Source: a virus
Taxonomy: Duplodnaviria > Caudoviricetes
Reading direction: 5' to 3' (one strand)
DNA: 64,000 nucleotides
Virus record (IMG/VR): IMGVR_UViG_3300045609_000068
Span: 18,501-82,500 of that record
This document shows, piece after piece, positions 11,305 to 33,060 of this stretch (within the stretch, counting starts at the first letter, position 1; every line of letters begins with the position of its first letter). The notes below the pieces were generated by a model. It searched no databases. It saw nothing but the letters and a program-made list of their open reading frames with translations, and was not told where the DNA came from. The position numbers and the translations under genes were made by a program.

Positions 11305-12648
11305 ATGAGGAAAAGAACTGAGAATAATTCCCGCGGAGACTTTTTCACCAGTGACGCGCTGGTGGCAGAATACCGCATCGCCAAAAAGACCATTCAGGAA
11401 TACGTGAACGAAATAGTCCGCGATTCGCATTACAGATCAATCGTCAACCAGATAGACGACGGGGCGGTACTGGACGACAGGTCGCGCCTGATAGACCTTT
11501 ACGAGTCGGGGATGATTCAGGACGCACATGTAAGCGCGGTACTGGAGACGCTGTTCTCGTACATGACAGGCGAAAGGTATATGCTGTGTACAATGAACGG
11601 GGAAGGAAAACTCGAAAAGGACAAAGAGCAGTCGGAGAAGATACAGGGGCAGCAGTTCGAGAAAATCATCAAGGAGATTCTTTACTCGCAGTTCTTCGGA
11701 TATTCCGTGATAGAGATTAACCCGAAGGTGGACGAACTGACCGGGCACCTTGCCGAAATCAATTCCATCGAGCGGAGGAATATACTCCCCGGTCAGAGAA
11801 GGGTGGTACAGCGTTCGCACCAATGGGACCCGGGGTGGGATCTGGACGACGAGCAGTACGTACACCGTTACGCCCTGATCGATTCGGGAGGGCTTGGAAT
11901 GTTCGCCCCGATGACACCGCTTGTACTCTCGAAAAAATACACCATAGCCAACTGGGTCAACTTCTCCCACACATACGGCCAGCCGATTATCCATGGCAAG
12001 ACTTCGAGCGAGAGCAAATCAGACAGGCAGTATCTTGCGACGCAGATAGCCAACGCAGCGCAGAAGAAGGTGCTTGTGACAGGAAAGGACGACGAGATAG
12101 ACGTAAAGACGTTCACGATGTCCAACTCGGAGAAGATTTACCAGTCGCTTATCGACTTCTCAAACGCGGAGATAAGCAACCTTGTGCTGGGTTCGGAAAG
12201 TATGGCCGGCGCGACGCAGAGCTATGTCGGTTCCACCAAGGCGCATGAGGATATATTCCGTGCAAGGATAAAGACTTACAGACGCATCGTCGAGAACGAG
12301 ATGAACGAGAAAATCATCCCGCGCCTTGTCTATTGGGGCTTTCTAAAGCAGGGAGTTGTGTTCAAATATTCCAACCAGATAGAGATGTCGATGGACAACA
12401 AGATAAAGCTGTACGACATGCTGACAAACAAATACAAGATAGATTCCGATGTCATCGAACGGGAGTTCGGAATCACGGTCGGGGATCAGCTCAATGCCAG
12501 TTATTACGGCACAGGTGGCATTTCGGAAGACGGAGGTACGGAACCCGAATACGGTAATAGGATGTCCGACGAGGAATACCTGAAAAGATACGGTCATCCG
12601 CGTCAGGAGGCAAAAGTAAATTTTCTCCTAGGGGATGCACGTCCCTGA
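11305..12648 (+). CDS. Portal protein (Mu gp29/DUF935-like)
   Basis: 447 aa; SQFFGYSVIE, WVNFSHTYGQP, NAEISNLVLG and STKAHEDIF resemble DUF935 portals; first gene of the head module. Confidence 0.8.
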   Translation: MRKRTENNSRGDFFTSDALVAEYRIAKKTIQEYVNEIVRDSHYRSIVNQIDDGAVLDDRSRLIDLYESGMIQDAHVSAVLETLFSYMTGERYMLCTMNGEGKLEKDKEQSEKIQGQQFEKIIKEILYSQFFGYSVIEINPKVDELTGHLAEINSIERRNILPGQRRVVQRSHQWDPGWDLDDEQYVHRYALIDSGGLGMFAPMTPLVLSKKYTIANWVNFSHTYGQPIIHGKTSSESKSDRQYLATQIANAAQKKVLVTGKDDEIDVKTFTMSNSEKIYQSLIDFSNAEISNLVLGSESMAGATQSYVGSTKAHEDIFRARIKTYRRIVENEMNEKIIPRLVYWGFLKQGVVFKYSNQIEMSMDNKIKLYDMLTNKYKIDSDVIEREFGITVGDQLNASYYGTGGISEDGGTEPEYGNRMSDEEYLKRYGHPRQEAKVNFLLGDARP

Positions 12649-12659
12649 AGTGTGTCCCC
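12618..12659 (+). promoter_or_regulatory. Putative -1 programmed ribosomal frameshift signal
   Basis: In-frame heptamer A_AAT_TTT (12618-12624), 6-nt spacer, then hairpin GGGGATGCAC/GTGTGTCCCC (12631-12659). Confidence 0.7.
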
Positions 12660-12794
12660 GACGTAAAAGCGGAACTTACCGACGAGGAAAAGGAAAAGGA
12701 GAAAAAGGAATATTCCGACCTTTATGCCCTTTTCGTTGAACTTCTGAAAAATCTGAGGAACGCGGACAGCAGGGAAGACGCGCTGGAGGCGATT

Positions 12795-13529
12795 ATGAGT
12801 CTTCGGGCAGACCTTGCCGTATCTCATGCCTTCAAAGGTTTCCACATGGACGAGGACGAGGCACTCGATCTGCTTAAAAGGGCGGACGACGAAATGCTCA
12901 CCAAGGACGAAAAGGACAAACGGGACAGACTTGTCGCGGCAGTGAGGAACCTCATCGACTTCGCCGTATGCGAGGAATACCAGCTGTACAAAAAGGTCAA
13001 GAAAAGATACGACGAGTTCGACGATGCGATTGACTATGACGAATACCCTGACGATTTTACGGACGACTGCGACGAATGGTGCAAGACGTATAACGACGCC
13101 TACGCCACGGTGGAAAACCACGACATAGAATACGCCATGGGCATCGCGCTCGCATGGATAGGGTATGGCGATAATGTATATCTCACCTACATGACGCAGA
13201 ACGACAACCGTGTAAGGCCGTGGCATTTCGCCTTGCAGGGGGAAACGTACACCAAGGACGATTTTCCCGCATGGATGATTCCGCCTATCGAGTGGGCCTG
13301 CCGATGCTTCCTAGTCCCGTCGTATGACGGTAACGCCAGCAAGGACATGAAACACGTGATGGCCAAGAAAGCGGCAAAGCCTAAGCAGCTTGACGGAATT
13401 TTCAGCGAGAGCGTGGCGAAATGCGGAAGAATTTTCTCCGCGTCGCATCCGTACTTCAAAGTTGACAAGGAAGACAAATCCAGACTGGGCGAAATTGCAG
13501 ACAAACTGAAAGGGAAATATTATGTATAA
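12795..13529 (+). CDS. Head morphogenesis protein (SPP1 gp7/Mu F-like); the reading frame is open from about 12562
   Basis: YMTQNDNRVRPWH...PPIEWACRC is the gp7/MuF signature. Confidence 0.85.
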   Translation: MSLRADLAVSHAFKGFHMDEDEALDLLKRADDEMLTKDEKDKRDRLVAAVRNLIDFAVCEEYQLYKKVKKRYDEFDDAIDYDEYPDDFTDDCDEWCKTYNDAYATVENHDIEYAMGIALAWIGYGDNVYLTYMTQNDNRVRPWHFALQGETYTKDDFPAWMIPPIEWACRCFLVPSYDGNASKDMKHVMAKKAAKPKQLDGIFSESVAKCGRIFSASHPYFKVDKEDKSRLGEIADKLKGKYYV

Positions 13530-17749: not shown

Positions 17750-19099
17750 ATGCCGACAAACACAAAATTAGGTGGTGTATTCACCACCGATCTTGACAAT
17801 AACATTGGTGGAACTGTGAACGTCTCTACTGAAAACGTATGCGGAATCATCTTCGACACCAAGATTGTGGGCGGTTTGGCAACAGCACTGGGCACTGGTA
17901 CCACTGCTGCTACGAAATTCGCCAATGGAGCCGTAGTCGAGCTTAATACCTCCAAGGACGTTGAATCCGCAGGTATAGACGCCACGGTCATGAGCGGTCT
18001 CCCGTTGCACCATCTGAGTAATTTCTTTACTCTTGCAGGGGAAAACCAACGTATATTCGTCTCTTTCATGGACTCGACTACCGACACGAACTTCGAGGCC
18101 GTCGAGAAGATGGTATTGGCTGCAAACGGTATCATATACCAGATTGGTGTATGGACGGGTGAAGCTTTATGCAAGAAGACCGATTCCACTGTCACTATCG
18201 TTGACGGAGGCATCCTTTCCAAACTTCAGGCACAGGCCGAAGTAGTGGGAGGAAAAATCGGGCACGTCAACTACGACGGGAACGCGCCTATAAACATTCT
18301 GGTGAATGCCCCTATCGTTACGGATGCAACGTTCGATGTGGCTTCACTCCCTGACATGTCATCGCTGAACCTGCCAAAGGTTTCCGTGATTCTCGGACAG
18401 CCGGCAACAGATGCGGTACATACGATACAGGCCGCTCTTGGCGGTATGTGTCCAGTGGGCAATGTCGGTGCAGCCCTTGCCTGCCTTGCAGTGGCACCTG
18501 CCGACATAAGCATCGGATGGGTCAAAGAGTTCAATCTGTCCAGCGTTATGACCAATGCGGAACTTGGATTCGGTAACTTGGACATAGATACCACATCGAA
18601 GGCATTCAAGGCTGATGCGGCATTTACGAACATCAAGACTCTCGGATATAGCGCACGCAACACCATCCATAGCAAGGGATATATTTTCCTTACGAATTTG
18701 GACGGAATCGAAAACGGTGTGTTCTTCTCCAGCGACCAGACGCTTAGCACTGGTGACTACAGGACTCTGATGCGTTGCCGTGTTATGCACAAGAGCCGCA
18801 GGTCTGTCAGAAAAGCCCTTCTTCCTTTCGTGAACCAGAGCGTGGAAGTTGATTCGACAACGGGCCAGCTTTCTTCATCCATGATTACGACATACCAGAA
18901 TGCAGTCTTGGCGGCACTTGACGACAATATGGTTGAACCTGGGACATCAGTTCCGCAGATTAGCGGACGTACATGCACTATCTCGTCCACACAGGATATC
19001 CTGACGAATGACGAATTGCAGATATCTTATAGCCTTGTACCAGTAGGATGCACTTCGGTCATCATGGTGACGGAGGGGTTTGTTACTTCTGTATCTTAA
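17750..19099 (+). CDS. Tail sheath protein 1 (DUF2586-like)
   Basis: 449 aa upstream of the tube gene; motifs VGAALACLA and RVMHKSRRSVRKALLP. Confidence 0.75.
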   Translation: MPTNTKLGGVFTTDLDNNIGGTVNVSTENVCGIIFDTKIVGGLATALGTGTTAATKFANGAVVELNTSKDVESAGIDATVMSGLPLHHLSNFFTLAGENQRIFVSFMDSTTDTNFEAVEKMVLAANGIIYQIGVWTGEALCKKTDSTVTIVDGGILSKLQAQAEVVGGKIGHVNYDGNAPINILVNAPIVTDATFDVASLPDMSSLNLPKVSVILGQPATDAVHTIQAALGGMCPVGNVGAALACLAVAPADISIGWVKEFNLSSVMTNAELGFGNLDIDTTSKAFKADAAFTNIKTLGYSARNTIHSKGYIFLTNLDGIENGVFFSSDQTLSTGDYRTLMRCRVMHKSRRSVRKALLPFVNQSVEVDSTTGQLSSSMITTYQNAVLAALDDNMVEPGTSVPQISGRTCTISSTQDILTNDELQISYSLVPVGCTSVIMVTEGFVTSVS

Positions 19100-21971: not shown

Positions 21972-22223
21972 ATGGAAATTATTATTCAATCTATCAACAC
22001 CCCATCGGGAATGATTAAGATAACGAAAGTCAACGAACGATACAAAATGTATTTTGATGGAAGATATATAAGTCCATTGGAATTGCTATCATACGCATTG
22101 AATATGGATGGAGTTATGGCATGGAAAACGATTCACTATGCCGATATTCTTGCATCATCCAAAGACAATTTGTATTGGAAAATGAGAGATGCTGTATGTA
22201 TGTGTATTACTACTCAATTTTGA
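21972..22223 (+). CDS. Hypothetical protein
   Basis: 83-aa ORF followed by a terminator. Confidence 0.55.
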   Translation: MEIIIQSINTPSGMIKITKVNERYKMYFDGRYISPLELLSYALNMDGVMAWKTIHYADILASSKDNLYWKMRDAVCMCITTQF

Positions 22224-22257
22224 GTTGATGGTGATTTTCAATTGATTACATTATTAT

Positions 22258-22292
22258 GGGCTGCCTAAGTTGAAATTAGGCAGCCTATTTTT
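22258..22292 (+). terminator. Intrinsic terminator
   Basis: GGCTGCCTA-N9-TAGGCAGCC followed by TATTTTT. Confidence 0.65.
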
Positions 22293-22598
22293 ATCAATAG
22301 CCATAGTCCAAAAATGGACTATGGTGATTTTCAACGAGTTAGACCCGCCAATTTTGGCGACAATCCTTTTATAGATAGTTAGTTATGAATTATTGACAGT
22401 ATCAACTTTAAGTTATTGTAATGGTATATCGCTAAATAGCGATATGCTTGATTTACAGCTACTTATGGTTAAAGTACAATCAAAATCATTAACCAGCAAA
22501 TCAACCAATAAACTAACCAACAAAATTATGTTGTACATACATTAACGATATTATCGAGCAGCAGAACGAGCAGCAGATTAACCAGCACCGATAGGTTA

Positions 22599-22645
22599 CA
22601 AAGATAACCCCAAAGATAACCCCAAAGATAACCCCAAAGATAACC
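22599..22645. repeat. 12-bp tandem repeat, about 3.9 copies
   Basis: CAAAGATAACCC three times plus CAAAGATAACC. Confidence 0.9.
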
Positions 22646-22888
22646 ACGTCTTATTTCCTGATAAAGATTTTGAAGCCACTAATAGTTTTTCCGTTAATGT
22701 TAATATCATTTAAAATACAGTTGGTTTAACATTATAAGCGATTATTTTATTATAAATATTGCAGCAAAGAATACAACAAAGGAAATAATTGCGTATATTT
22801 GTATCAGAATAATTAAATGTTATGTGCATTTTTCTACTGGGAAATACACAAATTCTAAGTACGTAAACATACAAATTCTTACATACAC

Positions 22889-23245
22889 ATGTGTGAACAA
22901 AATCTTGAAATTATTAAAACTAGAGATATCTTTCTAAAAAATGGGGAGAAATCTGATGTAGTTCTGTTAAAGGATCCAGAAGGAGTTGTGGATATGCACT
23001 TTACCTTTTGTTTGAAATACGTTGGCGATAACGTCCAGACTCAGACGCATTATAAAGTGGCAGACAAGTCTAGTGCTGATTTTATTATTGAAACGAGGCC
23101 CAATTCCTATACTGAGCTAAAGCAGCCATTTCGCATTGGGACATTCGGAAAAGAAGAAAAAGGATTGTTTATAAATTTTAAAGTATATCCATGCGATGAA
23201 AGCAATACGCACCACATGTACTTGTCTTTTTTAACATCAAAATAA
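22889..23245 (+). CDS. AT-rich accessory hypothetical protein (weak DUF6864-like resemblance)
   Basis: 118 aa; TATATTTG at 22794-22801 upstream. Confidence 0.6.
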   Translation: MCEQNLEIIKTRDIFLKNGEKSDVVLLKDPEGVVDMHFTFCLKYVGDNVQTQTHYKVADKSSADFIIETRPNSYTELKQPFRIGTFGKEEKGLFINFKVYPCDESNTHHMYLSFLTSK

Positions 23246-23254
23246 ACTAATGTT

Positions 23255-23680
23255 ATGGCTCTAATTACAGAAGGTGAAATCGAAGTAAGCGAAACTATTT
23301 GCAATCTGACGGTAGTACCTATACAGATAACAGAAGATAAACTTAAAAATATACTTACGCAGCATATTGAAAAAATAAAGAAATCGCACGGGTGGATTCC
23401 AGCGTTGGTCACTGTTGTGTCTTTCGTATTGACTATAGATACATCTGATTTCCATGATTCATTCGGCTTTAATGCGGACACCTTAAAAGGATTTTTTGGA
23501 TGCCTTATTTTGCTCTTCTTTTGTTATTTCCTTTACGTTTCATGGAATTGCATCAAAAATAGAGACAGCGTGGATAATATCATAAAAGATATAGAAAACA
23601 AACAAGTAGCTAAAAAAGATAATTCTATAAAGAGCTTTTTTAAAAACTCCGGAAAGCGTAAGATTGATATAAAGGCTTAA
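23255..23680 (+). CDS. Two-TM membrane protein (accessory)
   Basis: WIPALVTVVSFVLTI and FFGCLILLFFCYFLYVSW. Confidence 0.7.
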   Translation: MALITEGEIEVSETICNLTVVPIQITEDKLKNILTQHIEKIKKSHGWIPALVTVVSFVLTIDTSDFHDSFGFNADTLKGFFGCLILLFFCYFLYVSWNCIKNRDSVDNIIKDIENKQVAKKDNSIKSFFKNSGKRKIDIKA

Positions 23681-23867
23681 TTGGAAATACGGAATTACCA
23701 TTAACGTGATTGCATTATTCGCCTTTGTCGCGAAATATCTTTTCCATCCAAAGGACTAGCATACAACAAATGGGATCAGTAATGCTGACCCCATAAATTT
23801 TATATATTTGTCTCAACACCGATTGGTTAACTTTATTTTGTATTAACGGATATTTCTGTTAATATGT

Positions 23868-25577
23868 ATGAATACTTTTGCCGAAAGAATACAACATGGT
23901 CGATTTTTCGATATATTTGCGCTACTAAATCTTGTTATGGATATTAATGGTGAATACATAGAGGAAAACTTTCTTCATCCCGAAAAATACGAACTGGTTT
24001 ATTCCAACGAAGTGGAGGCCAGCATCCTTCGAATCATGAGGAGACGGAAACATGAGTTATTCGGTGATAGTCACGACCCGTCGGAAGAGCAGTGGAGAGA
24101 GTGGGCCGATTATCTTGAAGAGAACTATATAAGGATGATACATACGGATATAGATCCGTTTTGCATACTTATCAGACACGACTTGCTACTGATACGAAAT
24201 TCATACGGAAGCATTATTGATACGATTGAATGGTTTAAATCCATTGGTATGCCTTATAATTTTGATGAAAGAAAATTTAATAGCAATTTTATGAACATAA
24301 TGCGATCTTATAATTCAGATTGGAAGTTATCAATTTCTGATTTGGATTTATTTAAGGTCGATAAAGAAAAAATTGAGGAAGAAAACAAAAAAAGACAGGA
24401 ATTAGAAGAAAAAAATAAGAAGAGACTAGAAGTATTATGTGCTGGACGCGACAAGTATCTTGCAAAAAAGGCAGAAGAAAAACGAATAAAAGAAGAGGAA
24501 GAAAAAAGGTTGTTAAGACTTCGCAAAAAGGAAGAACGAAAAGCCAAGATTATTGAGGAACGGCAGAGAATAGTTACAGAAAACTATTTAATGAGTTTCC
24601 CTTTCCCTTATATAAACGATGAAATAGGCATAAAATTTATTAATGATTACAGAATTGAAAATGGGCATCTCCCGATGTTTTATATTTTGTGCAATTATCT
24701 AAAGATATATGGGCATTTGCAATGTATCGACAATTTGTCAAAAGCATATTGTGTATATATGGAGTATGAGCATGTCAAGTACGGTCCAACTGAAGAAATA
24801 TGGGAAAGTTATGGGATTACAAGAGTTCAGGCCAAGGCAGCAATGAGAAAACATAAGCCGAACAGGATGCTGAAATTAATCCTCGACCACGAAGACTGGA
24901 ACTATTATGAGGTTAGAAATATGAAATTCATATCTAAAGATAATTTCGACATAGAACTTTTCTGCAAGACAGAAAAAGTGAAATTGAATTTTGTTCAGTT
25001 TTTCTTTATGCTGAAACTTGTATATAACAGATATGGGCTGTGTCGTATATACACTGAAGATTTAGAGCCGTTTAGAGAATCGAAAGATAGTGTTTATTGC
25101 TATGATTACATAATATATGAAGACTTTAATATATATAACTTTTCTGATGCAATAAAAGATTTATCAAAGATTGCAAATCTGCATAAACTTATTGAAGGAG
25201 CAAAGACTATCCAAGATGATTATATTATGAATGAAAAATATTGGGATATAGATCTGAAAGAAAAAATGCCGGCGTTCGACATACATAATATATACAGAAT
25301 CCTTTTTACCATATTCAATGATGTAATGGGAGAATGGATAAAAAATAATAAAGACATTTTCATTGAAGATAATTTTCATAGGACACCTAATGTTAAGTCA
25401 ATTTTAAAAGAAGCCTCCGTTCCTCTTACGTGCCTGGAAGTATTTCAAACATACACAAAGGATTACCCGGAAGATAAGACTATAACGTTGGAGAAGGTGA
25501 GAAGTATATTGAAAAGTAATTCCAAGATAATCAGACGTGGTGACATATATAATACGAAACTTTTTTACAAAATATAG
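23868..25577 (+). CDS. Large AT-rich hypothetical protein with a central coiled coil
   Basis: 569 aa; K/E-rich stretch; TATATTTG at 23803-23810 upstream. Confidence 0.75.
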   Translation: MNTFAERIQHGRFFDIFALLNLVMDINGEYIEENFLHPEKYELVYSNEVEASILRIMRRRKHELFGDSHDPSEEQWREWADYLEENYIRMIHTDIDPFCILIRHDLLLIRNSYGSIIDTIEWFKSIGMPYNFDERKFNSNFMNIMRSYNSDWKLSISDLDLFKVDKEKIEEENKKRQELEEKNKKRLEVLCAGRDKYLAKKAEEKRIKEEEEKRLLRLRKKEERKAKIIEERQRIVTENYLMSFPFPYINDEIGIKFINDYRIENGHLPMFYILCNYLKIYGHLQCIDNLSKAYCVYMEYEHVKYGPTEEIWESYGITRVQAKAAMRKHKPNRMLKLILDHEDWNYYEVRNMKFISKDNFDIELFCKTEKVKLNFVQFFFMLKLVYNRYGLCRIYTEDLEPFRESKDSVYCYDYIIYEDFNIYNFSDAIKDLSKIANLHKLIEGAKTIQDDYIMNEKYWDIDLKEKMPAFDIHNIYRILFTIFNDVMGEWIKNNKDIFIEDNFHRTPNVKSILKEASVPLTCLEVFQTYTKDYPEDKTITLEKVRSILKSNSKIIRRGDIYNTKLFYKI

Positions 25578-25580
25578 CTT

Positions 25581-25835
25581 ATGAAAAAGAAATATTTAAA
25601 AATAGTGTTGATAGTAATTTGTTTTATCTTATTTGGGTGGTATGTATATTCTTCAAGCCAAAGAGTTGAACAAGGGTACAAAGGAGCAGATGAAACGACA
25701 AAGAGAGTTGAAAAGTATTCCAACCAAGCTTTGAAAAACGGGTATAATGAAACGTCTGGCGGCATAGGTGCTAAACCTGTTGTTGTCAAAAAGTCAGATT
25801 TGGAAAAAGATAATATAGGACAGGATGATGAATAG
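25581..25835 (+). CDS. Small single-TM protein homologous to a tape measure segment
   Basis: N-terminal TM helix; aa 33-67 match TMP aa 1269-1303 at 21/35 identities. Confidence 0.75.
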   Translation: MKKKYLKIVLIVICFILFGWYVYSSSQRVEQGYKGADETTKRVEKYSNQALKNGYNETSGGIGAKPVVVKKSDLEKDNIGQDDE

Positions 25836-25854
25836 TTTCACCCCGCCCCATATT

Positions 25855-28800
25855 CTACACTTTGCCCATAAGAGAAAGCTGTGAGTTCACTTGTGATGTA
25901 AGCATAGCAATAGCTTGTGCAAGACGATCCTCGACAGACTGAATCATTGCTCTTTCGTCAGCGTTACCAGCAATCGTAGTTTTGTCGAAATTGGCAAGAT
26001 TTTGTATTGTTATATTGATTTGCGTCGGAGTTGCGGCTTGCCTTCCGTAAGTGTTTTCGTAACCCTTGTTAGGATTGCTGCTCCCTCCGGTTCTGCCGCC
26101 TTTTCCTCCTGTTGCTGCTGGAAGTGAATTAGTAGCGTTACTAGAACCCGAATTATTCCATCCAGTTCCAAACCCATTGTCAACAGTCCCTTTTTTGTTT
26201 TTGTTGTTCTTTTTAGCACCGGGTATGGATTTTACTATATTATTTTCTTTAGTTCCAGGTCTGGTAATATATGCCAGTTTACCTTTATTCTGTTTCTTAT
26301 CGTCAATTGCTTTTTGCAGTGGATTATATGGCTGATATCCCATATTCCAAGCATATCCGAACTTTTGTTTTCCTGCCTTGTATGGTATCTTTACTTTATT
26401 ACTTTTTGGTTGGAGAACATTATTTGTACTAGGATTCTCTCCTGAATTCCAATTTACATTAGTCCATCTCGAAGCCTCAATCTCTTGTTGTTTAAGATAT
26501 TCTATCAAAGCCTTTATTCTACCAGCAACGCCTTGTAACCCAGGTATGTTATCTAATGAATTGGCAATATTTTCGAGAAGTGATACATGCGCGTTAACCG
26601 TATTAGGAACTTGTATTCCAAGCGCATTTAACATGTCGTAGAAACCTTCCCATTGTGGTTGCCCGTTCTTGAATTGCAAGAATACATTTTGCATCCTTCC
26701 ATACATATCAGGCAATTTGATTGGTATTGTCCCTAGATAACTACTAGCCGCATTCATAAATTTATCAGAATACAGTCCAGTAAGATTAACTAAATTCTGA
26801 TAAGTTTTCCAAACTTGTGTAAGTTTATTATATGCGCCAGAATACCATTGAGTAAATTCAGATAAATCAGGTGAATTAAATATCTGTTTATACCCATAAT
26901 TGTTTACATCTTTCCCAATATTAAGAGCAGGATTAAATTGCTCAATCATATTGTTAATAGCCTCTTTATTCTTTGCAGATAATTTTCCTTTTGAATTTTC
27001 TACAATAGAAGTTATCTTTGATTCTGCATTTTTTGTTTCATTTGATTCTGCTCCATATCTATATACTGATGCACGAGCTATTAAATTACGAACCCCGTTA
27101 TAGTATTTATTATCGACCCCTAATGTCTTATATGTTTTAATTTTGGTTCCATCTTCTGCTGTGTATTCTTGCAATAAATTTCCACCAGCATCAGTTTCTA
27201 ATTGATTCTTGATAGCTGAAAATGAATAGTTTTTGCTATCTTTACCATAAGCATATTTGTATGGAACAATATATTTATCGTACCAGTTTTGTAAAATAGG
27301 CAGGAAATGCGTATCTTTTCCTAACTTACTTGTAAGTTGTCTGAAATCAGATATTTGTGACAACTTTCTTTTAGATGCTTTTGGTTTATTTGATACGGAT
27401 GGTATATCACCGACATAAGTATTATTATTTAGTTGCGGATTTGATTTCAACCAATTTGTAAGATCAATTGGTTTTGTCCCAATTCCGCCAGCCATTTGAT
27501 TATATCCATTTTTTAAAGCGGTTTTAGAATATGCTTTAACCCTATCGCTTGTCTTGTCAGCATCTTCGTATCTCTTGCTAATATGTTTAACATAAGCAAC
27601 AAGTAAAGCTATACCTGCAAGTGCTGCAAGATACGGTAATGCTGCTGTAAACATTCCAGCAATTTTTGCTAAGAAAATAGGTATTCTTAAAATGGAATTT
27701 TTTATCATATTAATTAATGGCATCAGCGTAAACCCTGTGAGCATGGCGTTTCCTGCCTTGTATGCAAGTCCCATCCTTGCACCAGTGCCTAATTTGTTCA
27801 TTGCGGCGAAGCGTTCGATAAGTGCGGAATTACGGAATTGTTCTGTACGTCTCATATCCCTCAATACGTTCATGTAGGCATTGCGTTCTGCAACCAATCT
27901 GCGTTCGTTAGCATAGTTCTGTTCAGCCCTTGCGCCATAGTGTGCGGAAAGTTCCGACTCACCAGCTCTTTCCCAATATTCAGAACCTTTGGTGTACATA
28001 AATCCGTTTGTATGGGCGTTACGTATATAATTATAATACGAGCCTCCGTTTCTATACATCGCATTTTGGCGTTCCAACAGTGTATTGGCACTTGCTCGTT
28101 CAGCGGCAATTGCCTCTGGAGCAGCGACCGCCCCTGCAACGGCGGCACTCGAACCTCTTGGATGGCGAAGCGTTGCCCACAGCAAAGAACCGTTAAGAAG
28201 AAGGCTTGTCAGCCCTCCTCCCAATCTTGACATTCCAGAAGTTGCAGCCCCTCTGCGGACTACAGATTTAACGGCATTTGCCTCCATTACTCTCGGAACA
28301 GCCCCTCCAGCCATCATCGCACCTGCAATACGGGCAGAACTGTAACGTGAAGCGATTCCGCCTCCAGCAGCCAAGCCACCAACGGCATACGCGCCACCAG
28401 CTACACCTGCCGCACCGGGCAGCAATCCTCTGAACGAAGACAGCATTCCGAGCATCTGCACGAACGGGGTAATGAGATAACCAATCTGTGTCATTGCCAT
28501 CTGCATGACAACAATCGCTTTGATGAATCCGGGGAATGCGTTATATATCTTTAGCCAAATGCTAACAGATGCTTTGAAAATACCCAATATGGCTTTGAGC
28601 AAGTCGAATACGTTCTTCAAGTTCTGCACAGCTTCTGGCTTGGCGAGATATTTAAGCGCATCTCCCATAGCTCCCTTAATGGTTTTCTGCAATCCACTGA
28701 ATACGGTTAATGTATCATCGGTCAACGAGCTCTCGACCTGTTTCCACAGACCCTCAACGGTGTTCTGTTTCTTTAGGGATATTTCATTTGCTATTCCGTT

Positions 28801-31374
28801 TGCCGCAAGGTTAGCATTTGCCACGCTGCGGGTCTTCTCGACATCAATGGTAGCGGCGGCAGCACCTTGTGTTGCGGTTACACGGAACAGTCCGGACATC
28901 CATTTCGCTATATTCTTATCGTTGACTTTAGGATTATGCTTGATTTTCTCTATAAGGTCAAGCATATCGACAGGACTTCCGTCCTTGTTCGTCAGGCTGA
29001 TGCCAAGCGCGTCCCAGTATTTCTGCGATTTCTTTGTTGGTTGAAGGACATTCTGATACATCATACGCAAGGTAGTACCAGCACGGCTTCCTTGAATACC
29101 AGAGTTACCCATGACACCTATCATCGCCAACGCTTCGGCAAGGGAATTTACATTTCCTTTCTGATGGTTGGCCAGATAAGCGTAACCGCCTCCATAGGAC
29201 AATGCCTCCGCCAGCTGAATCATGTTGGTGTTGGTAGAGGTATATGTGTTGGTAAGCATATCCGCCAGCTTCGGCATATCCTTCGGCTTGATTTTGAACT
29301 CCGTCATGATGTTCGTCATCTTATCGGCCATAGTTGCCAAATCCTGATCGTCAATGACTGCCACATCTGCGATAGGCTTGATTGCCGCTGCGGAAGTGGG
29401 GACATCCAAACCTGCCATCGCCATGAAACGTGCCGCACCCGCTGCATCGGGGGCGGTGAACTTAGTCTTCCTTGCCACGTTTCTTACGTTCTTAGCCAGA
29501 TTTCCGAAATCTCCGTTGAAGTTGTTTCCTCTATAGTTATTCCTGTAAATAGCTTTAGCCGTTTCCATCAAATTCTGATATTGTACGGATTGGCCGAAAG
29601 TATCGGAAATGACGCTCATGGCACCGCCTACGGCAAACATGGTTCCCATGCCTTTAGCCATTGAAAGAGCGGCTGGGGTGGATGCTCCGAACGAGGTGTT
29701 GCCAGTAAGTGGGTACGCCCAACGGCGAGCCCTTGCGTAAAGCCCTTCATTATTGCCTCCAGCCAAAGCCATTCCCTCTTTCCCTGCTGGGATTCTCATC
29801 CTTGCATATCCCGTCCTTGCGTAAGGCAACATGCCATACGTGCTTCCAAGGCGTGCTGCGGTTTCAGCCGAACGTGAACCATAAGGAAGAGGCTGTTCGC
29901 TTGTATATCCGGGCCCAGAAGTCGTGCGCTGTCTGGAACCTCCTCCTGTAGCTAATGTGACGGGTATAGGTCTTTCCAAAGTCATCAGCGCTTCCCTGAG
30001 CTTGGCAATCTGCTCCATGGCACCAGTGATATTGAGATTTACTTTGACATCGTTAAGTCCCTCACCGAGCTTTTTGGAGATCGCGTTTCTGTTAGCCGCA
30101 CCCTCTTTGGCGTTTGTACCCCATACAGGTTCTATCCTCGCCTTGATGGTAAGGGCTTTCATCTTTTCGGCAGCCTTTGCTAAGGAGGCCTCGATGCCTG
30201 CCGCATCCACAATGGCCTTTACAGGGACTTCCACCGCAGCCTTTGGAGCTTTTATCCTTTCGGCGGCAAGTGTACCTTGCAGCTTGACGGTTCCGATAGC
30301 CTTTACACTGTCCGCGTTGATTTCGGCAGTCGCCTTGATGTTAAGTTCGGACTTAACTGGAAGAACACGGGTAACTTCGGCAACGGTCTCCACAACGTTA
30401 GGGCCAGTGGGTTTTGGCAGTACACGTGTAACTTCGGCAACAACAGGTATCGTTATTTCAGCAGCACCCTTCGCGGCCTTTGCGCCTTTTCCTCCCTTGC
30501 CAGCTACACCTTTTGACACTGCTTGCATCTGCTTGGTGATGTCCTCCCAGTTGGACATTACATCTATCTTGTAAGAGAAAGTCTTTTTCTTTACAAGGGA
30601 TAGTTTTTCGAGCGCGGATGCCAGTGAACGGATGGCGGTGGCGTTAGCCTGCGTCGTGGAAGGCGCTGGCGTTATGCCGACATTGACCATCCCTTCCGTC
30701 TTGGATGACGAAGCGCCTCCTGAAATGAGACCGGGGTATTTCTTGACTAAGTCATTTTGAAGTTTTCCGAGTCTTTCCAGTTCTTTGTTATAATTGGTAA
30801 TCTGTCTGTTGGCCTCGGCAGTCAGGTTGGCGTAATGCTTTTTCTGGTTTTCCCTCCACTTGTTGAGCTTGTCCCCGGAATACCCCATAGGTGTAGCGGT
30901 AGACACTCTGCTGGACTGCGCATTTAACTTATCAAGCTCTTTTTGCGTATCCGTAATTTTTTTACGGTAATCCTTTATGCCTTCTTTGTAAGCGTTCAGC
31001 TGCGATTTCCTCAAACCCCTTCCGTCGAGTTTCCCGACGCTTTCCATGAACTTCGCAGCACCAGCCTGACCTCCGAAAACGGATTCAAGGGTGTCGCGCA
31101 TCCGTATCGCGGACGCCGTTACCATCCTTTCCATGGTACCAAGGTCCGTTCGTATTCCTTCGGTATTAATCTTAGGGTTGATCTTTGTCGCTGCATTGGA
31201 AAGCGACTGTATGGTCTTTGTTATGGACTTTACATCGCTGTTAAGCAAAGAGAACCCCTTGCCCTTTCCGGACAGTTGATGTATTCTACCAAGCAAAGCG
31301 TCCAACGCCTGCGATACTGGCAGTGTGTTGGCGGTTATATTATAGTTAACGATATAATTTCTTTCAGGAGCCAT
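25855..31374 (-). CDS. Tail tape measure protein
   Basis: 1839 aa; TP901/PhageMin_Tail-like core TKFTAPDAAGAARFMAMAG...GNSGIQGSRAGT; hydrophobic TM segments. Confidence 0.92.
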   Translation of the reverse strand: MAPERNYIVNYNITANTLPVSQALDALLGRIHQLSGKGKGFSLLNSDVKSITKTIQSLSNAATKINPKINTEGIRTDLGTMERMVTASAIRMRDTLESVFGGQAGAAKFMESVGKLDGRGLRKSQLNAYKEGIKDYRKKITDTQKELDKLNAQSSRVSTATPMGYSGDKLNKWRENQKKHYANLTAEANRQITNYNKELERLGKLQNDLVKKYPGLISGGASSSKTEGMVNVGITPAPSTTQANATAIRSLASALEKLSLVKKKTFSYKIDVMSNWEDITKQMQAVSKGVAGKGGKGAKAAKGAAEITIPVVAEVTRVLPKPTGPNVVETVAEVTRVLPVKSELNIKATAEINADSVKAIGTVKLQGTLAAERIKAPKAAVEVPVKAIVDAAGIEASLAKAAEKMKALTIKARIEPVWGTNAKEGAANRNAISKKLGEGLNDVKVNLNITGAMEQIAKLREALMTLERPIPVTLATGGGSRQRTTSGPGYTSEQPLPYGSRSAETAARLGSTYGMLPYARTGYARMRIPAGKEGMALAGGNNEGLYARARRWAYPLTGNTSFGASTPAALSMAKGMGTMFAVGGAMSVISDTFGQSVQYQNLMETAKAIYRNNYRGNNFNGDFGNLAKNVRNVARKTKFTAPDAAGAARFMAMAGLDVPTSAAAIKPIADVAVIDDQDLATMADKMTNIMTEFKIKPKDMPKLADMLTNTYTSTNTNMIQLAEALSYGGGYAYLANHQKGNVNSLAEALAMIGVMGNSGIQGSRAGTTLRMMYQNVLQPTKKSQKYWDALGISLTNKDGSPVDMLDLIEKIKHNPKVNDKNIAKWMSGLFRVTATQGAAAATIDVEKTRSVANANLAANGIANEISLKKQNTVEGLWKQVESSLTDDTLTVFSGLQKTIKGAMGDALKYLAKPEAVQNLKNVFDLLKAILGIFKASVSIWLKIYNAFPGFIKAIVVMQMAMTQIGYLITPFVQMLGMLSSFRGLLPGAAGVAGGAYAVGGLAAGGGIASRYSSARIAGAMMAGGAVPRVMEANAVKSVVRRGAATSGMSRLGGGLTSLLLNGSLLWATLRHPRGSSAAVAGAVAAPEAIAAERASANTLLERQNAMYRNGGSYYNYIRNAHTNGFMYTKGSEYWERAGESELSAHYGARAEQNYANERRLVAERNAYMNVLRDMRRTEQFRNSALIERFAAMNKLGTGARMGLAYKAGNAMLTGFTLMPLINMIKNSILRIPIFLAKIAGMFTAALPYLAALAGIALLVAYVKHISKRYEDADKTSDRVKAYSKTALKNGYNQMAGGIGTKPIDLTNWLKSNPQLNNNTYVGDIPSVSNKPKASKRKLSQISDFRQLTSKLGKDTHFLPILQNWYDKYIVPYKYAYGKDSKNYSFSAIKNQLETDAGGNLLQEYTAEDGTKIKTYKTLGVDNKYYNGVRNLIARASVYRYGAESNETKNAESKITSIVENSKGKLSAKNKEAINNMIEQFNPALNIGKDVNNYGYKQIFNSPDLSEFTQWYSGAYNKLTQVWKTYQNLVNLTGLYSDKFMNAASSYLGTIPIKLPDMYGRMQNVFLQFKNGQPQWEGFYDMLNALGIQVPNTVNAHVSLLENIANSLDNIPGLQGVAGRIKALIEYLKQQEIEASRWTNVNWNSGENPSTNNVLQPKSNKVKIPYKAGKQKFGYAWNMGYQPYNPLQKAIDDKKQNKGKLAYITRPGTKENNIVKSIPGAKKNNKNKKGTVDNGFGTGWNNSGSSNATNSLPAATGGKGGRTGGSSNPNKGYENTYGRQAATPTQINITIQNLANFDKTTIAGNADERAMIQSVEDRLAQAIAMLTSQVNSQLSLMGKV

Positions 31375-31394: not shown

Positions 31395-32711
31395 TTAAAC
31401 TTCGAATGTTTCAAGTGCCGTGATTGCCGTTGAGGAATCGGCGGGTACGACATCGGTTTTTATGTTGATGCTGTCCGTCTCGATGATATTCCCGTTTGCT
31501 GATACGGAAACGTTTCTTCCGTCGATCTGTTTATATCCCAACGGATTGACCATGGCGGTGTCTATCAGCGACAAAACGTCGTTGACTATCTGCGCCTTGC
31601 CTGTTTCGGTAATGTCCCCGGTTGTCGTTTCAAGATAGAACGTGGCATTGATATAAGGTATAAGCGCCCTTCTTACAACCCTGCGTATCTTGTGCATGAC
31701 TCTGTTGCGGGACAACGAGCAATAGTCCCCGTCGGAAAGCGTCGTGTCGTTGCTGAAATAAACGGCACCTGGCTTGGGCACATAGGTGACTGGGACGACA
31801 TATCCTTTGTTGGCTATCTGATTCAGTCGGTATTGGCTCATTCCGCTTATCGGGGAGTAATCGTCGCTTGACGATTTCAATGTGCCGAAACCGAGTTCCG
31901 CGCTTTTGAAGTCGTCGTTCTTGTTGAGGTCGTATTTTGAAACGTATGCGATGCTTTCCTCCGCTGGTGCAAGGCACAAGCAGGCCAAAACCTTTCCGAG
32001 CATCCCAACTGGAGAATAGTTTATGTCGCTATTTTGCATGGTATGTACAGCATCTGTTCCGTTCTGCCCAAGGATGACGCTCAACTTCGGAAAATCAAGG
32101 TTTATGGCGTTCGGAATGTTTCTGTAGTCCATGATATACGAATCAGCCCCGTCCGCTTTTGTATGCGCGGTATTTGCATTCAGCACGATATTCATGGGAA
32201 GCAGCGCCGATGCCGTCTTCCCGATGATTCCAGAAAGTATTTCCGCACGTGCCTCTATCTCGCCTAGCAGCGCAGTGAATCCGATTGTTCCGCCCGTTGA
32301 CTTCCATAAGTCCTGTTCCGTCCATATACCTAGCTGGAATAACTTCCCTGATGCTTTCTGCTGGAAGTCCTCTATACAGGTAAATGACGGGGAGCCGTTG
32401 TCAACGCAGTTTGCGAACATCACGTATATGGCCGCATCCTTTCCGATATAGCTATAAAATTCCTTGATATGATAATAGGGTATGCCGCCCATTATTCCTC
32501 CCTCTTTGATTCCGAGATACACGGCCTCGTCGATGTTGTTTATCTGCTGTACCTGTCCGTCTCCGAAATTCAGAGCCGCAGTGTCATATCCATAAAAGGC
32601 ATTCGACCTTAACCCGTAGTCGAAAACCATTCCGCATACGCTTTCGTCGTATGAAACATCCAATACGTTGCTTTGCAGTTTGCCTACGTTCGCCTTTCCT
32701 ATATTGCCCAT
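31395..32711 (-). CDS. Tail sheath protein 2 (DUF2586-like paralogue)
   Basis: Colinear motif matches to 17750-19099; start set at MGNIGK (32711) after the ACTATATA motif. Confidence 0.75.
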   Translation of the reverse strand: MGNIGKANVGKLQSNVLDVSYDESVCGMVFDYGLRSNAFYGYDTAALNFGDGQVQQINNIDEAVYLGIKEGGIMGGIPYYHIKEFYSYIGKDAAIYVMFANCVDNGSPSFTCIEDFQQKASGKLFQLGIWTEQDLWKSTGGTIGFTALLGEIEARAEILSGIIGKTASALLPMNIVLNANTAHTKADGADSYIMDYRNIPNAINLDFPKLSVILGQNGTDAVHTMQNSDINYSPVGMLGKVLACLCLAPAEESIAYVSKYDLNKNDDFKSAELGFGTLKSSSDDYSPISGMSQYRLNQIANKGYVVPVTYVPKPGAVYFSNDTTLSDGDYCSLSRNRVMHKIRRVVRRALIPYINATFYLETTTGDITETGKAQIVNDVLSLIDTAMVNPLGYKQIDGRNVSVSANGNIIETDSINIKTDVVPADSSTAITALETFEV

Positions 32712-32728
32712 ATTAATAGTATTTCTTA

Positions 32729-32736
32729 TATATAGT
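32729..32736 (-). promoter_or_regulatory. ACTATATA putative phage late promoter (sheath 2/TMP)
   Basis: Exact motif 17 nt upstream of the ATG at 32711. Confidence 0.6.
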
Positions 32737-33060
32737 GTTTTTCGGAGATTTGAAGTCATTACGTTTTTGATGCGGTTTGTAAGTTAATGTAAGTTAATTA
32801 ATACACCTTTGGTTCATAAGGTAACTATATCAAGGTAGAGCATAGGTTGGAGTAGCTACCAATCGACAAGGGGTAATCCGAAGGCCCCTTGCTCTTTCTT
32901 TATTCTTCGGGGTAACTTAAACATTCGGATTATGGACACTTCTTGATTTCACCTTATTTATAGTCGGCATCAGCTTAATGATACCCAAAAGCCCTTAATG
33001 GCTGGGTTAGACCCGTCGAGATGATTTGAGGTCAGTTTCGATGTTTCCGAAAATCGGGCA

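Follow-up and report, generated by a model that had tools for sequence, protein, structure and literature searches.

A putative programmed -1 ribosomal frameshift signal at the end of a Mu-type portal gene, predicted to yield a portal-MuF fusion in phages of Bacteroidales

Introduction

Programmed frameshifts in phage structural genes are textbook knowledge for tail assembly chaperones and for a few capsid proteins. Here we describe a junction between a portal gene and the gene of a MuF/gp7-like head protein, found in a 64,000-nucleotide stretch of virus DNA (Duplodnaviria; Caudoviricetes; positions 18,501 to 82,500 of IMGVR_UViG_3300045609_000068, an 82.5-kb IMG/VR virus record; this whole stretch is called the window). 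The 3′ end of the portal gene of this gut/rumen phage of Bacteroidales very probably carries a programmed -1 ribosomal frameshift cassette, the product of which would be a portal-MuF fusion.

In lambda and most tailed phages, the tail assembly chaperones are made with the help of a G/GT-type -1 frameshift (Xu, Hendrix & Duda 2004, as cited in PMC7911831 and PMC7302621). The portal-MuF site has in common with lambda G/GT a conserved X_XXY_YYZ shift near the end of an upstream structural gene and a downstream open reading frame (ORF) without its own start. A short product and a longer fusion, which lambda G/GT yields in a fixed ratio, are also predicted here. The genes are however different, since portal and MuF belong to the head module and are both virion components, not tail chaperones encoded between the major tail and tape-measure genes. 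Many G/GT sites have no obvious stimulator, whereas a strongly covarying hairpin is found at the portal-MuF site. In our reading, this site works like G/GT but is not a member of that class.

Bacterial -1 cassettes, those of dnaX (tau/gamma) and of the IS3/IS911 orfAB genes, are reviewed in PMC5009743, and a study of the slippery motifs is available (PMC4066793). These cassettes and the portal-MuF site share a bacterial heptamer, a short spacer and a downstream stem-loop or pseudoknot. However, the heptamer is A_AAU_UUU here instead of A_AAA_AAG, no conserved upstream element was seen, and the portal-MuF shift would extend a protein whereas the dnaX shift truncates one. dnaX also has an upstream Shine-Dalgarno-like stimulator.

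Frameshifts that extend a capsid protein are among those treated in PMC5009743, for gene 10 of T3/T7 and for Lactobacillus phage A2, as is retroviral Gag-Pol. In gene 10 and A2, ribosomes that shift shortly before a structural gene ends produce a minority of C-terminally extended subunits that co-assemble with the others, as would be the case for the portal. In Gag-Pol, a structural protein brings cargo into the particle at a set ratio, a role that the portal may share. Unlike in these three systems, the carrier would be a 12-subunit portal located at one unique vertex, so that only a few copies per virion are possible, and the cargo would be MuF, a putative internal head protein.

The same two proteins, in the same order, form single-ORF fusions in Microbacterium phages of clusters EA3/EA5/EA8 and EB (PMC7302621), and a covalent portal-MuF chain can therefore work. 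In those phages the fusion is obligatory and every subunit carries MuF without recoding, whereas here most subunits would be plain portal. In SPP1, gp7 binds the portal and in this way reaches the procapsid, in few copies (PMC6316719), one to two according to PMC5576092. Within the family, a low-copy internal protein associated with the portal is known only from SPP1 gp7. A MuF gene directly downstream of the portal gene is a rule stated in the latter paper. As in SPP1 gp6-gp7, the MuF-family gene of the window immediately follows the portal gene. However, SPP1 gp6 and gp7 are separate proteins that bind non-covalently, and the portal families differ (SPP1 gp6 type versus Mu type, PF06074). 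A sequence-only reading of the window, from which this work started, had taken SPP1 gp7 as an established portal-binding, low-copy virion protein.

Results

The portal gene extends from position 11305 to 12648 (0 frame, codon phase 1; plus strand, as for all features unless stated otherwise). It encodes 447 amino acids, the product expected when no frameshift occurs. Its match to the Pfam profile PF06074 Portal_Mu (E 5.9e-51, 174.2 bits for a cut-off of 23.9, residues 64-390 aligned with profile positions 2-336 of 336) identifies it, at the level of sequence, as a Mu-type portal. The 3′ end of the gene reads ...GCA AAA GTA AAT TTT CTC CTA GGG GAT GCA CGT CCC TGA. The TTT codon, eighth before the TGA stop (12646-12648), closes the slippery heptamer A_AAT_TTT (X_XXY_YYZ; 12618-12624), which is in the portal register. 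A 6-nt spacer, CTCCTA (12625-12630), separates the heptamer from a hairpin (12631-12659) in which GGGGATGCAC (12631-12640) pairs with GTGTGTCCCC (12650-12659). The stem comprises 10 base pairs, two of them G-U, and the 9-nt loop contains the portal stop. This stem was retained in both the minimum free energy and the centroid folds of the window.

The -1 frame at this site is the frame of the MuF ORF. It is open from stop to stop over 322 codons (12561-13529), and its first ATG, GTG or TTG is the ATG at 12795-12797. This is the codon that gene callers would choose, leaving a 146-nt gap after the portal stop. A shift at the heptamer would join 440 portal residues to 301 further residues in a 741-aa fusion. 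After the slip site, the -1 frame encodes a transframe linker (S-P-R-G-C-T-S-L-K-C-V-P-D-V-K; 12624-12668), open in every relative and modelled with a predicted local distance difference test (pLDDT) score of 48-77. The N-terminal helical part of the MuF domain follows (12669-12794), inside the annotated gap and without ATG, GTG or TTG. The remainder of the MuF/gp7-like head protein (12795-13529) contains the core motif RPWH..LQG...WMIPPIEW.CRCF. This ORF matched PHROG 324 (head morphogenesis) and PHROG 220 (minor head protein and DNA pilot), as well as PF04233 Phage_Mu_F (31.8 bits for a cut-off of 29.6, covering only profile positions 62-111 of 112). When the MuF model was compared with the PDB by Foldseek, no hit had an E value below 0.48. 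The location of the gene, directly downstream of the portal gene, is that expected for the MuF/SPP1 gp7 family. The heptamer, the spacer, the 10-bp hairpin with its two G-U pairs, the MuF frame open through the gap without an ATG of its own and a fusion of about 741 aa had all been proposed by the sequence-only reading; inspection of the sequence, folding and an ORF scan reproduced every detail.

That the heptamer and the hairpin are more than a chance association does not follow from the window alone, where the 9-mer AAATTTTCT occurs 3 times for 1.6 expected. Their significance comes from conservation in relatives. Loci were gathered from three IMG/VR scans, one metagenome scan and species-representative genomes, plus two INPHARED records. 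The scan of species-representative genomes gave no loci with a two-sequence alignment and 10 loci with a 30-sequence alignment. In each locus, the end of the portal gene and the MuF frame were placed by tblastn. The resulting set contains 129 loci with 74 distinct junction sequences, window included (24 clusters at 70% identity, 16 at 60%), and MuF identity to the window ranges from 37 to 56% across it. In all 74 distinct junctions, the MuF frame is -1 with respect to the portal frame and opens upstream of the heptamer and of the portal stop, and A_AAT_TTT is present in register. The distance from heptamer to portal stop is 19-28 nt, except in one junction where it is 10 nt.

The same layout is observed in nine of the 10 loci from bacterial genomes, including those of the cultured strains Prevotella sp. 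MGM2, Lepagella muris NM04_E33 and Segatella copri HF1825. It is also carried by the isolated Bacteroides phage BS-TP1 (host Bacteroides salyersiae BG8; MuF 40% identical), annotated as two separate genes with a 113-nt gap, and by a Mexican faecal phage record (MuF 35% identical). Because the signal sits in prophages of cultured strains and in an isolated Bacteroides phage, the sequences identify the hosts as Bacteroidales and at least some members as temperate. A second heptamer in a T-run, T_TTT_TTC in five cases and T_TTT_TTG in one, is present in six of the 74 junctions. In the Segatella copri HF1825 prophage (L153:2432-2441), GAA AAT TTT TTC combines A_AAT_TTT with an overlapping T_TTT_TTC; the two share one register, and the 10-bp hairpin downstream of them is a different one.

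The set of relatives also bears on a trivial explanation, already raised by the sequence-only reading, in which a single fused portal-MuF gene would have been split by an indel in the A3T4 run that arose during assembly or sequencing. A fused relative does exist. P0001, on one 31.7-kb Logan contig (SRR13001973), is a 729-aa single-ORF, in-frame portal-MuF fusion with a MuF part 44% identical to that of the window; seen as the protein of one contig, it may itself be an assembly artefact. However, its linker is different, Lys-rich and devoid of the heptamer residues, with neither N-F-L nor K-F-S. Moreover, the 129 loci were assembled independently, from viromes, metagenomes, isolate genomes and an isolated phage, and share the two-frame layout and an identical heptamer, while the 0 frame stops within a few codons of the slip site in every one of them. 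An indel is thereby excluded for all practical purposes.

The codons of the heptamer were then compared with those of neighbouring conserved residues. At the site, Asn is encoded by AAT and Phe by TTT in 65 of 65 scorable junctions. In the rest of these genes, 56% of Asn residues are encoded by AAT and 46% of Phe residues by TTT. In the same junctions, the three residues of the invariant R-Y-G slightly farther upstream are written with 5, 2 and 4 codons, respectively. AAT is preceded by GTA, ATA, GAA, CTA, TTA, AAA, GGA or ACA. Seven amino acids are therefore encoded, always with an A at the third position, whereas A-ending codons represent only 13-25% of the Val, Ile and Leu codons elsewhere in these genes. 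Because synonymous sites are frozen at Asn, Phe and the preceding codon while neighbouring invariant residues vary, the comparison argues that the heptamer is selected at the RNA level, beyond the encoded amino acids. A_AAU_UUU is a member of the H_HH.U_UU.Y class; combined with a stimulator, motifs of this class rank with the most efficient -1 sites known from E. coli (PMC4066793). Two other elements were considered at this site. A GGAGG located 8 nt before the heptamer of the window could resemble an upstream Shine-Dalgarno-like stimulator, but relatives are without it and it is not part of the signal. Transcriptional slippage was rejected on general grounds, the A3 and T4 runs being too short.

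Downstream of the heptamer, the first two spacer bases, CT, are invariant in 44 aligned junctions. The spacer between heptamer and core stem is mostly 5 nt long in the relatives and ranges from 0 to 6 nt depending on extra basal pairs. A hairpin of 8-16 bp was found in 74 of 74 junctions (mean z -3.6). The stem sequences vary widely, as illustrated by AGGGTATGCGA / TCGCATACCCT, by GGAGAGGGG / CCCCTCTCC in BS-TP1 and by GGGGAGCGGAA / TTCCGCTCCC. With a 37-sequence alignment, RNAalifold gave compensatory changes in nine of 11 pairs. In the 10-pair helix, 93.8% of cells pair; shuffling lowers this value to 74.9 ± 1.4%, and sliding the partners lowers it to 35-65%. Changes on both sides affect 78 cells for 19.7 ± 4.0 expected, a value reached by none of 500 shuffles, and they involve eight of the 10 pairs. 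The relatives therefore keep the heptamer, the spacer and a covarying stem, the comparison that had been suggested for checking the frameshift.

No intrinsic terminator and no meaningful promoter were found at the junction, and the hairpin itself was ruled out as a terminator, being without a T-tail. It matched no Rfam family. A pseudoknot between the loop and downstream sequence is not supported in the window (z +1.6). In two other clades (junctions L012, L014-L020 and L041-L045, L053), an H-type pseudoknot is possible. In one of them, the loop AAAGGC(U) can pair with AGCCUU located 12-13 nt past the stem, and in the other, the loop CAGGG can pair with CCCUG located 10-13 nt past the stem. 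Since the loop of each clade matches its own downstream sequence, loop and partner differ jointly between the clades. These pairings are suggestive only.

We then asked whether the apparent gap is translated. Over the 225 nt after the heptamer, the 44 distinct junctions contain no stop in the -1 frame, as compared to 193 and 323 in the other two frames; stops in the gap had been named by the sequence-only reading as a finding that would speak against it. Length differences among relatives are all whole codons. Counted from the slip site, the first ATG of the -1 frame varies in position between codons 17 and 122, and 21 of the 44 junctions, that of the window among them, lack any ATG, GTG or TTG ahead of a conserved LLALF motif. 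From the end of the hairpin to LLALF, the ratio of nonsynonymous to synonymous polymorphism (pN/pS) in these 21 start-less junctions is 0.45 in the -1 frame, as compared to 0.89 and 1.59 in the other frames (reported span for the segment, 0.39-0.45 versus 0.9-1.6). Within two close clades, it is 0.21-0.36 in the -1 frame versus 0.63-2.8 in the others. These values point to a gap that is coding in the -1 frame and under purifying selection in that frame only. In the window, as far as the sequence tells, a frameshift is the only evident route by which the conserved N-terminal helices of MuF would be translated.

These results also bear on a mechanism in which ribosomes terminating in the hairpin loop would reinitiate nearby in the -1 frame, or initiate there in a non-canonical manner, to give free full-length MuF and no fusion. 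The position of the portal stop, in or beside the hairpin in all junctions, would suit such a mechanism, and overlapping stop/start coupling is used by phage Mu and by L154, an outgroup locus described below. However, no conserved candidate start is found between the stop and the conserved helix, a region where the window has no ATG, GTG or TTG. Termination-reinitiation would also leave unexplained the invariant in-register heptamer and a -1 frame open back to it in every junction. We consider it quite improbable.

The ATG at 12795 was examined with an AlphaFold2 model of MuF built from 30 relatives (mean pLDDT 80.5, predicted template modelling score 0.82). A helix is modelled at residues 22-44 counted from the slip site (pLDDT 92-97), and together with the purifying selection in the -1 frame it bears out the protein-like helix that the sequence-only reading had recognised in the gap. 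ATG 12795 corresponds to residue 60, mid-way in a second modelled helix (residues 49-74). According to the model, a start at this position would truncate a confidently predicted helical domain. Met is not conserved at this column in the relatives. The column occupied by Met in some lineages contains ATG in 18 junctions, CTG in 11, CTT in 8 and TTG in 3, a mixture that indicates an internal Met/Leu position rather than a start codon.

Translation initiation is unusual in Bacteroidota, where A/T-rich starts and rare Shine-Dalgarno motifs are the expected style. In the window, a Shine-Dalgarno-like tetramer precedes only seven of 59 ORFs. The 20 nt upstream of 12795 contain 40% A+T, whereas 57 other ORFs average 71% and all exceed the value at 12795. 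A GGAGG is found at 12785-12789, 5 nt before the ATG, and the sequence-only reading had considered that MuF might initiate only there. Because Shine-Dalgarno motifs are rare in this phage and GGAGG provides codons for a conserved L-E-A, this motif is weak evidence for initiation. ATG 12795 is probably an internal methionine codon and not the main start.

With these data, the possibility of two separate genes can be weighed. Translation of MuF would then begin exclusively at ATG 12795, or in relatives at their variable ATGs; the heptamer would be kept for the N-F-L tail of the portal, and the hairpin would act in mRNA stability or processing. The GGAGG ahead of the ATG and the two-gene annotation of BS-TP1 agree with this possibility, as does the N-F-L tail of the outgroup L154, in which MuF has a separate start. 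However, separate genes would account neither for the frozen synonymous sites of the heptamer next to invariant residues whose codons vary, nor for the purifying selection upstream of the ATGs in the -1 frame and the presence of MuF in that frame in all 74 junctions. The ATG falls within a predicted helix, and its surroundings are GC-rich, in contrast to the other starts of this phage. Shine-Dalgarno motifs are rare in this phage, and no terminator was found at the junction. We therefore regard two independent genes as very unlikely.

Other features of the window were also noted. The slip site is preceded by the C-terminal portal motif R-M-S-D-E-E-Y-x-K-R-Y-G-H-P-R (12559-12603), which would be part of both products. 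This motif (R-M-S-D-E-E-Y-x-[KR]-R-Y-G-[HR]-x-R) is kept in every relative, including BS-TP1, L154 and P0001, even without a frameshift. Its codons vary synonymously, and a variable Gly/Ser/Asp/Asn-rich linker precedes it. After the MuF gene come genes for a gpG-like protein and for a Clp-type head protease/scaffold. Because sheath-like, baseplate-hub-like and tape-measure-like proteins are encoded in the window, the phage is probably a myovirus. Two tail-sheath-like genes are on opposite strands (17750-19099, plus; 31395-32759, minus), a 1839-aa tape-measure-like gene is at 25855-31374 (minus strand), and a block at 22000-28000 has a low GC content (33-36% versus about 48%). The opposed sheath genes, the minus-strand tape measure and the low-GC block may reflect a module exchange, or two tail modules in one record.

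Discussion

Overall, the junction combines what characterizes a programmed -1 frameshift at the sequence level: an in-register heptamer, a covarying downstream structure, a coding -1 ORF without a start, and selection beyond the encoded amino acids. In the mechanism that we propose, most ribosomes would read through the heptamer and stop seven codons past TTT, giving the 447-aa portal. A fraction of them would pause at the hairpin 6 nt past the heptamer, where tRNA-Asn and tRNA-Phe on AAU UUU could slip one base back to AAA UUU. Shifted ribosomes would continue via the short flexible linker into MuF to make the 741-aa portal-MuF fusion. Fusion subunits could then co-assemble with plain portal subunits in the portal dodecamer. 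A few copies of MuF would thereby be placed inside the head at the portal vertex, their number being set by frameshift efficiency in a Gag-Pol-like manner. Such an arrangement would be the covalent equivalent of the SPP1 gp6-gp7 interaction. By analogy with these systems, we infer that the frameshift fixes a sub-stoichiometric number of MuF-bearing portal subunits.

Some of the data weigh against this interpretation. The hairpin of the window, taken alone, only modestly beats shuffled sequences (z -1.4 in an 83-nt context, -2.6 in a 52-nt context). The 15-25 residues that directly follow the slip site are weakly constrained (pN/pS 0.75-0.81). This weak constraint fits a linker that is probably a flexible tether also obliged to encode the hairpin. 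An ATG is present just before the conserved helix in 18 of the 44 aligned junctions, and that of the window has its GGAGG. Free MuF could thus also be made, including a minor truncated product from 12795. The N-F-L tail of the portal is kept in L154, and part of the conservation of the heptamer (N-F) could be at the protein level. However, this cannot be the whole explanation, because AAT TTT is fixed at synonymous sites while the R-Y-G codons vary. Finally, the rating of the slip motif as efficient comes from E. coli and not from Bacteroidota.

The frameshift layout is not universal among Mu-like heads, as judged from other sequences. In L154 (L154:2430-2560; Alistipes sp. metagenome-assembled genome, MuF 34% identical), MuF is in the +1 frame and has its own ATG overlapping the portal stop (ATGcgTGA), directly before the conserved N-terminal helix. 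The portal of L154 ends with A-N-F-L, in which A-N-F is encoded by GCA AAT TTC. In phage Mu (gp29/gp30) and in Flavobacterium phage FPSV-S1, MuF also has its own start in the +1 frame. With P0001, the sequences indicate that separate, frameshifted and fused states of portal and MuF all occur. In the marine Winogradskyella phage Peternella_1 (L065:2570-2720; MT732475.1), A-runs close the upstream coding sequence (cct aaa aaa aaa agt cta aaa aaa gtg), which is annotated as head morphogenesis protein. The coding sequence after it, annotated as head morphogenesis/portal, is in the -1 frame and is open from the A-run. This A-run may be an analogous slip site in a phage of Flavobacteriia.

A bolder proposal may be considered for this large Bacteroidales phage clade. 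Full-length MuF would never be free in it, and its sole way into the head would be as an extension, made by frameshifting, that a minority of the portal subunits carry. The efficiency of recoding would count the MuF copies at the portal vertex, the head protease maybe releasing MuF later, and the relatives would illustrate three assembly solutions: coupled but separate genes, as in the Alistipes genome and phage Mu, a fusion by frameshift, and an obligatory fusion in frame. This proposal as a whole is possible, though we hold it to be rather doubtful.

According to the sequence-only reading, a portal-gp7 frameshift is not known to have been described. Full-text literature searches likewise returned no frameshift in a portal gene, only frameshifts in tail chaperones, capsids and the like. 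In the part of its text that was accessible, a large 2016 review on recoding contains no mention of 'portal'. The word is likewise absent in this context from the paper on PRFect and from that on the MuF superfamily (PMC5576092).

Because an isolated phage and prophages of cultured strains carry the signal, the frameshift is directly testable. We know of no characterized recoding signal from Bacteroidota. If true, the site would provide a natural, strongly covarying -1 frameshift stimulator from this phylum. It would also correct the annotation of MuF, now given internal ATGs and an unexplained gap as in BS-TP1, across a phage family widespread in the human gut and the rumen. Finally, it would explain how an internal protein present in few copies at one vertex gets counted into the capsid.

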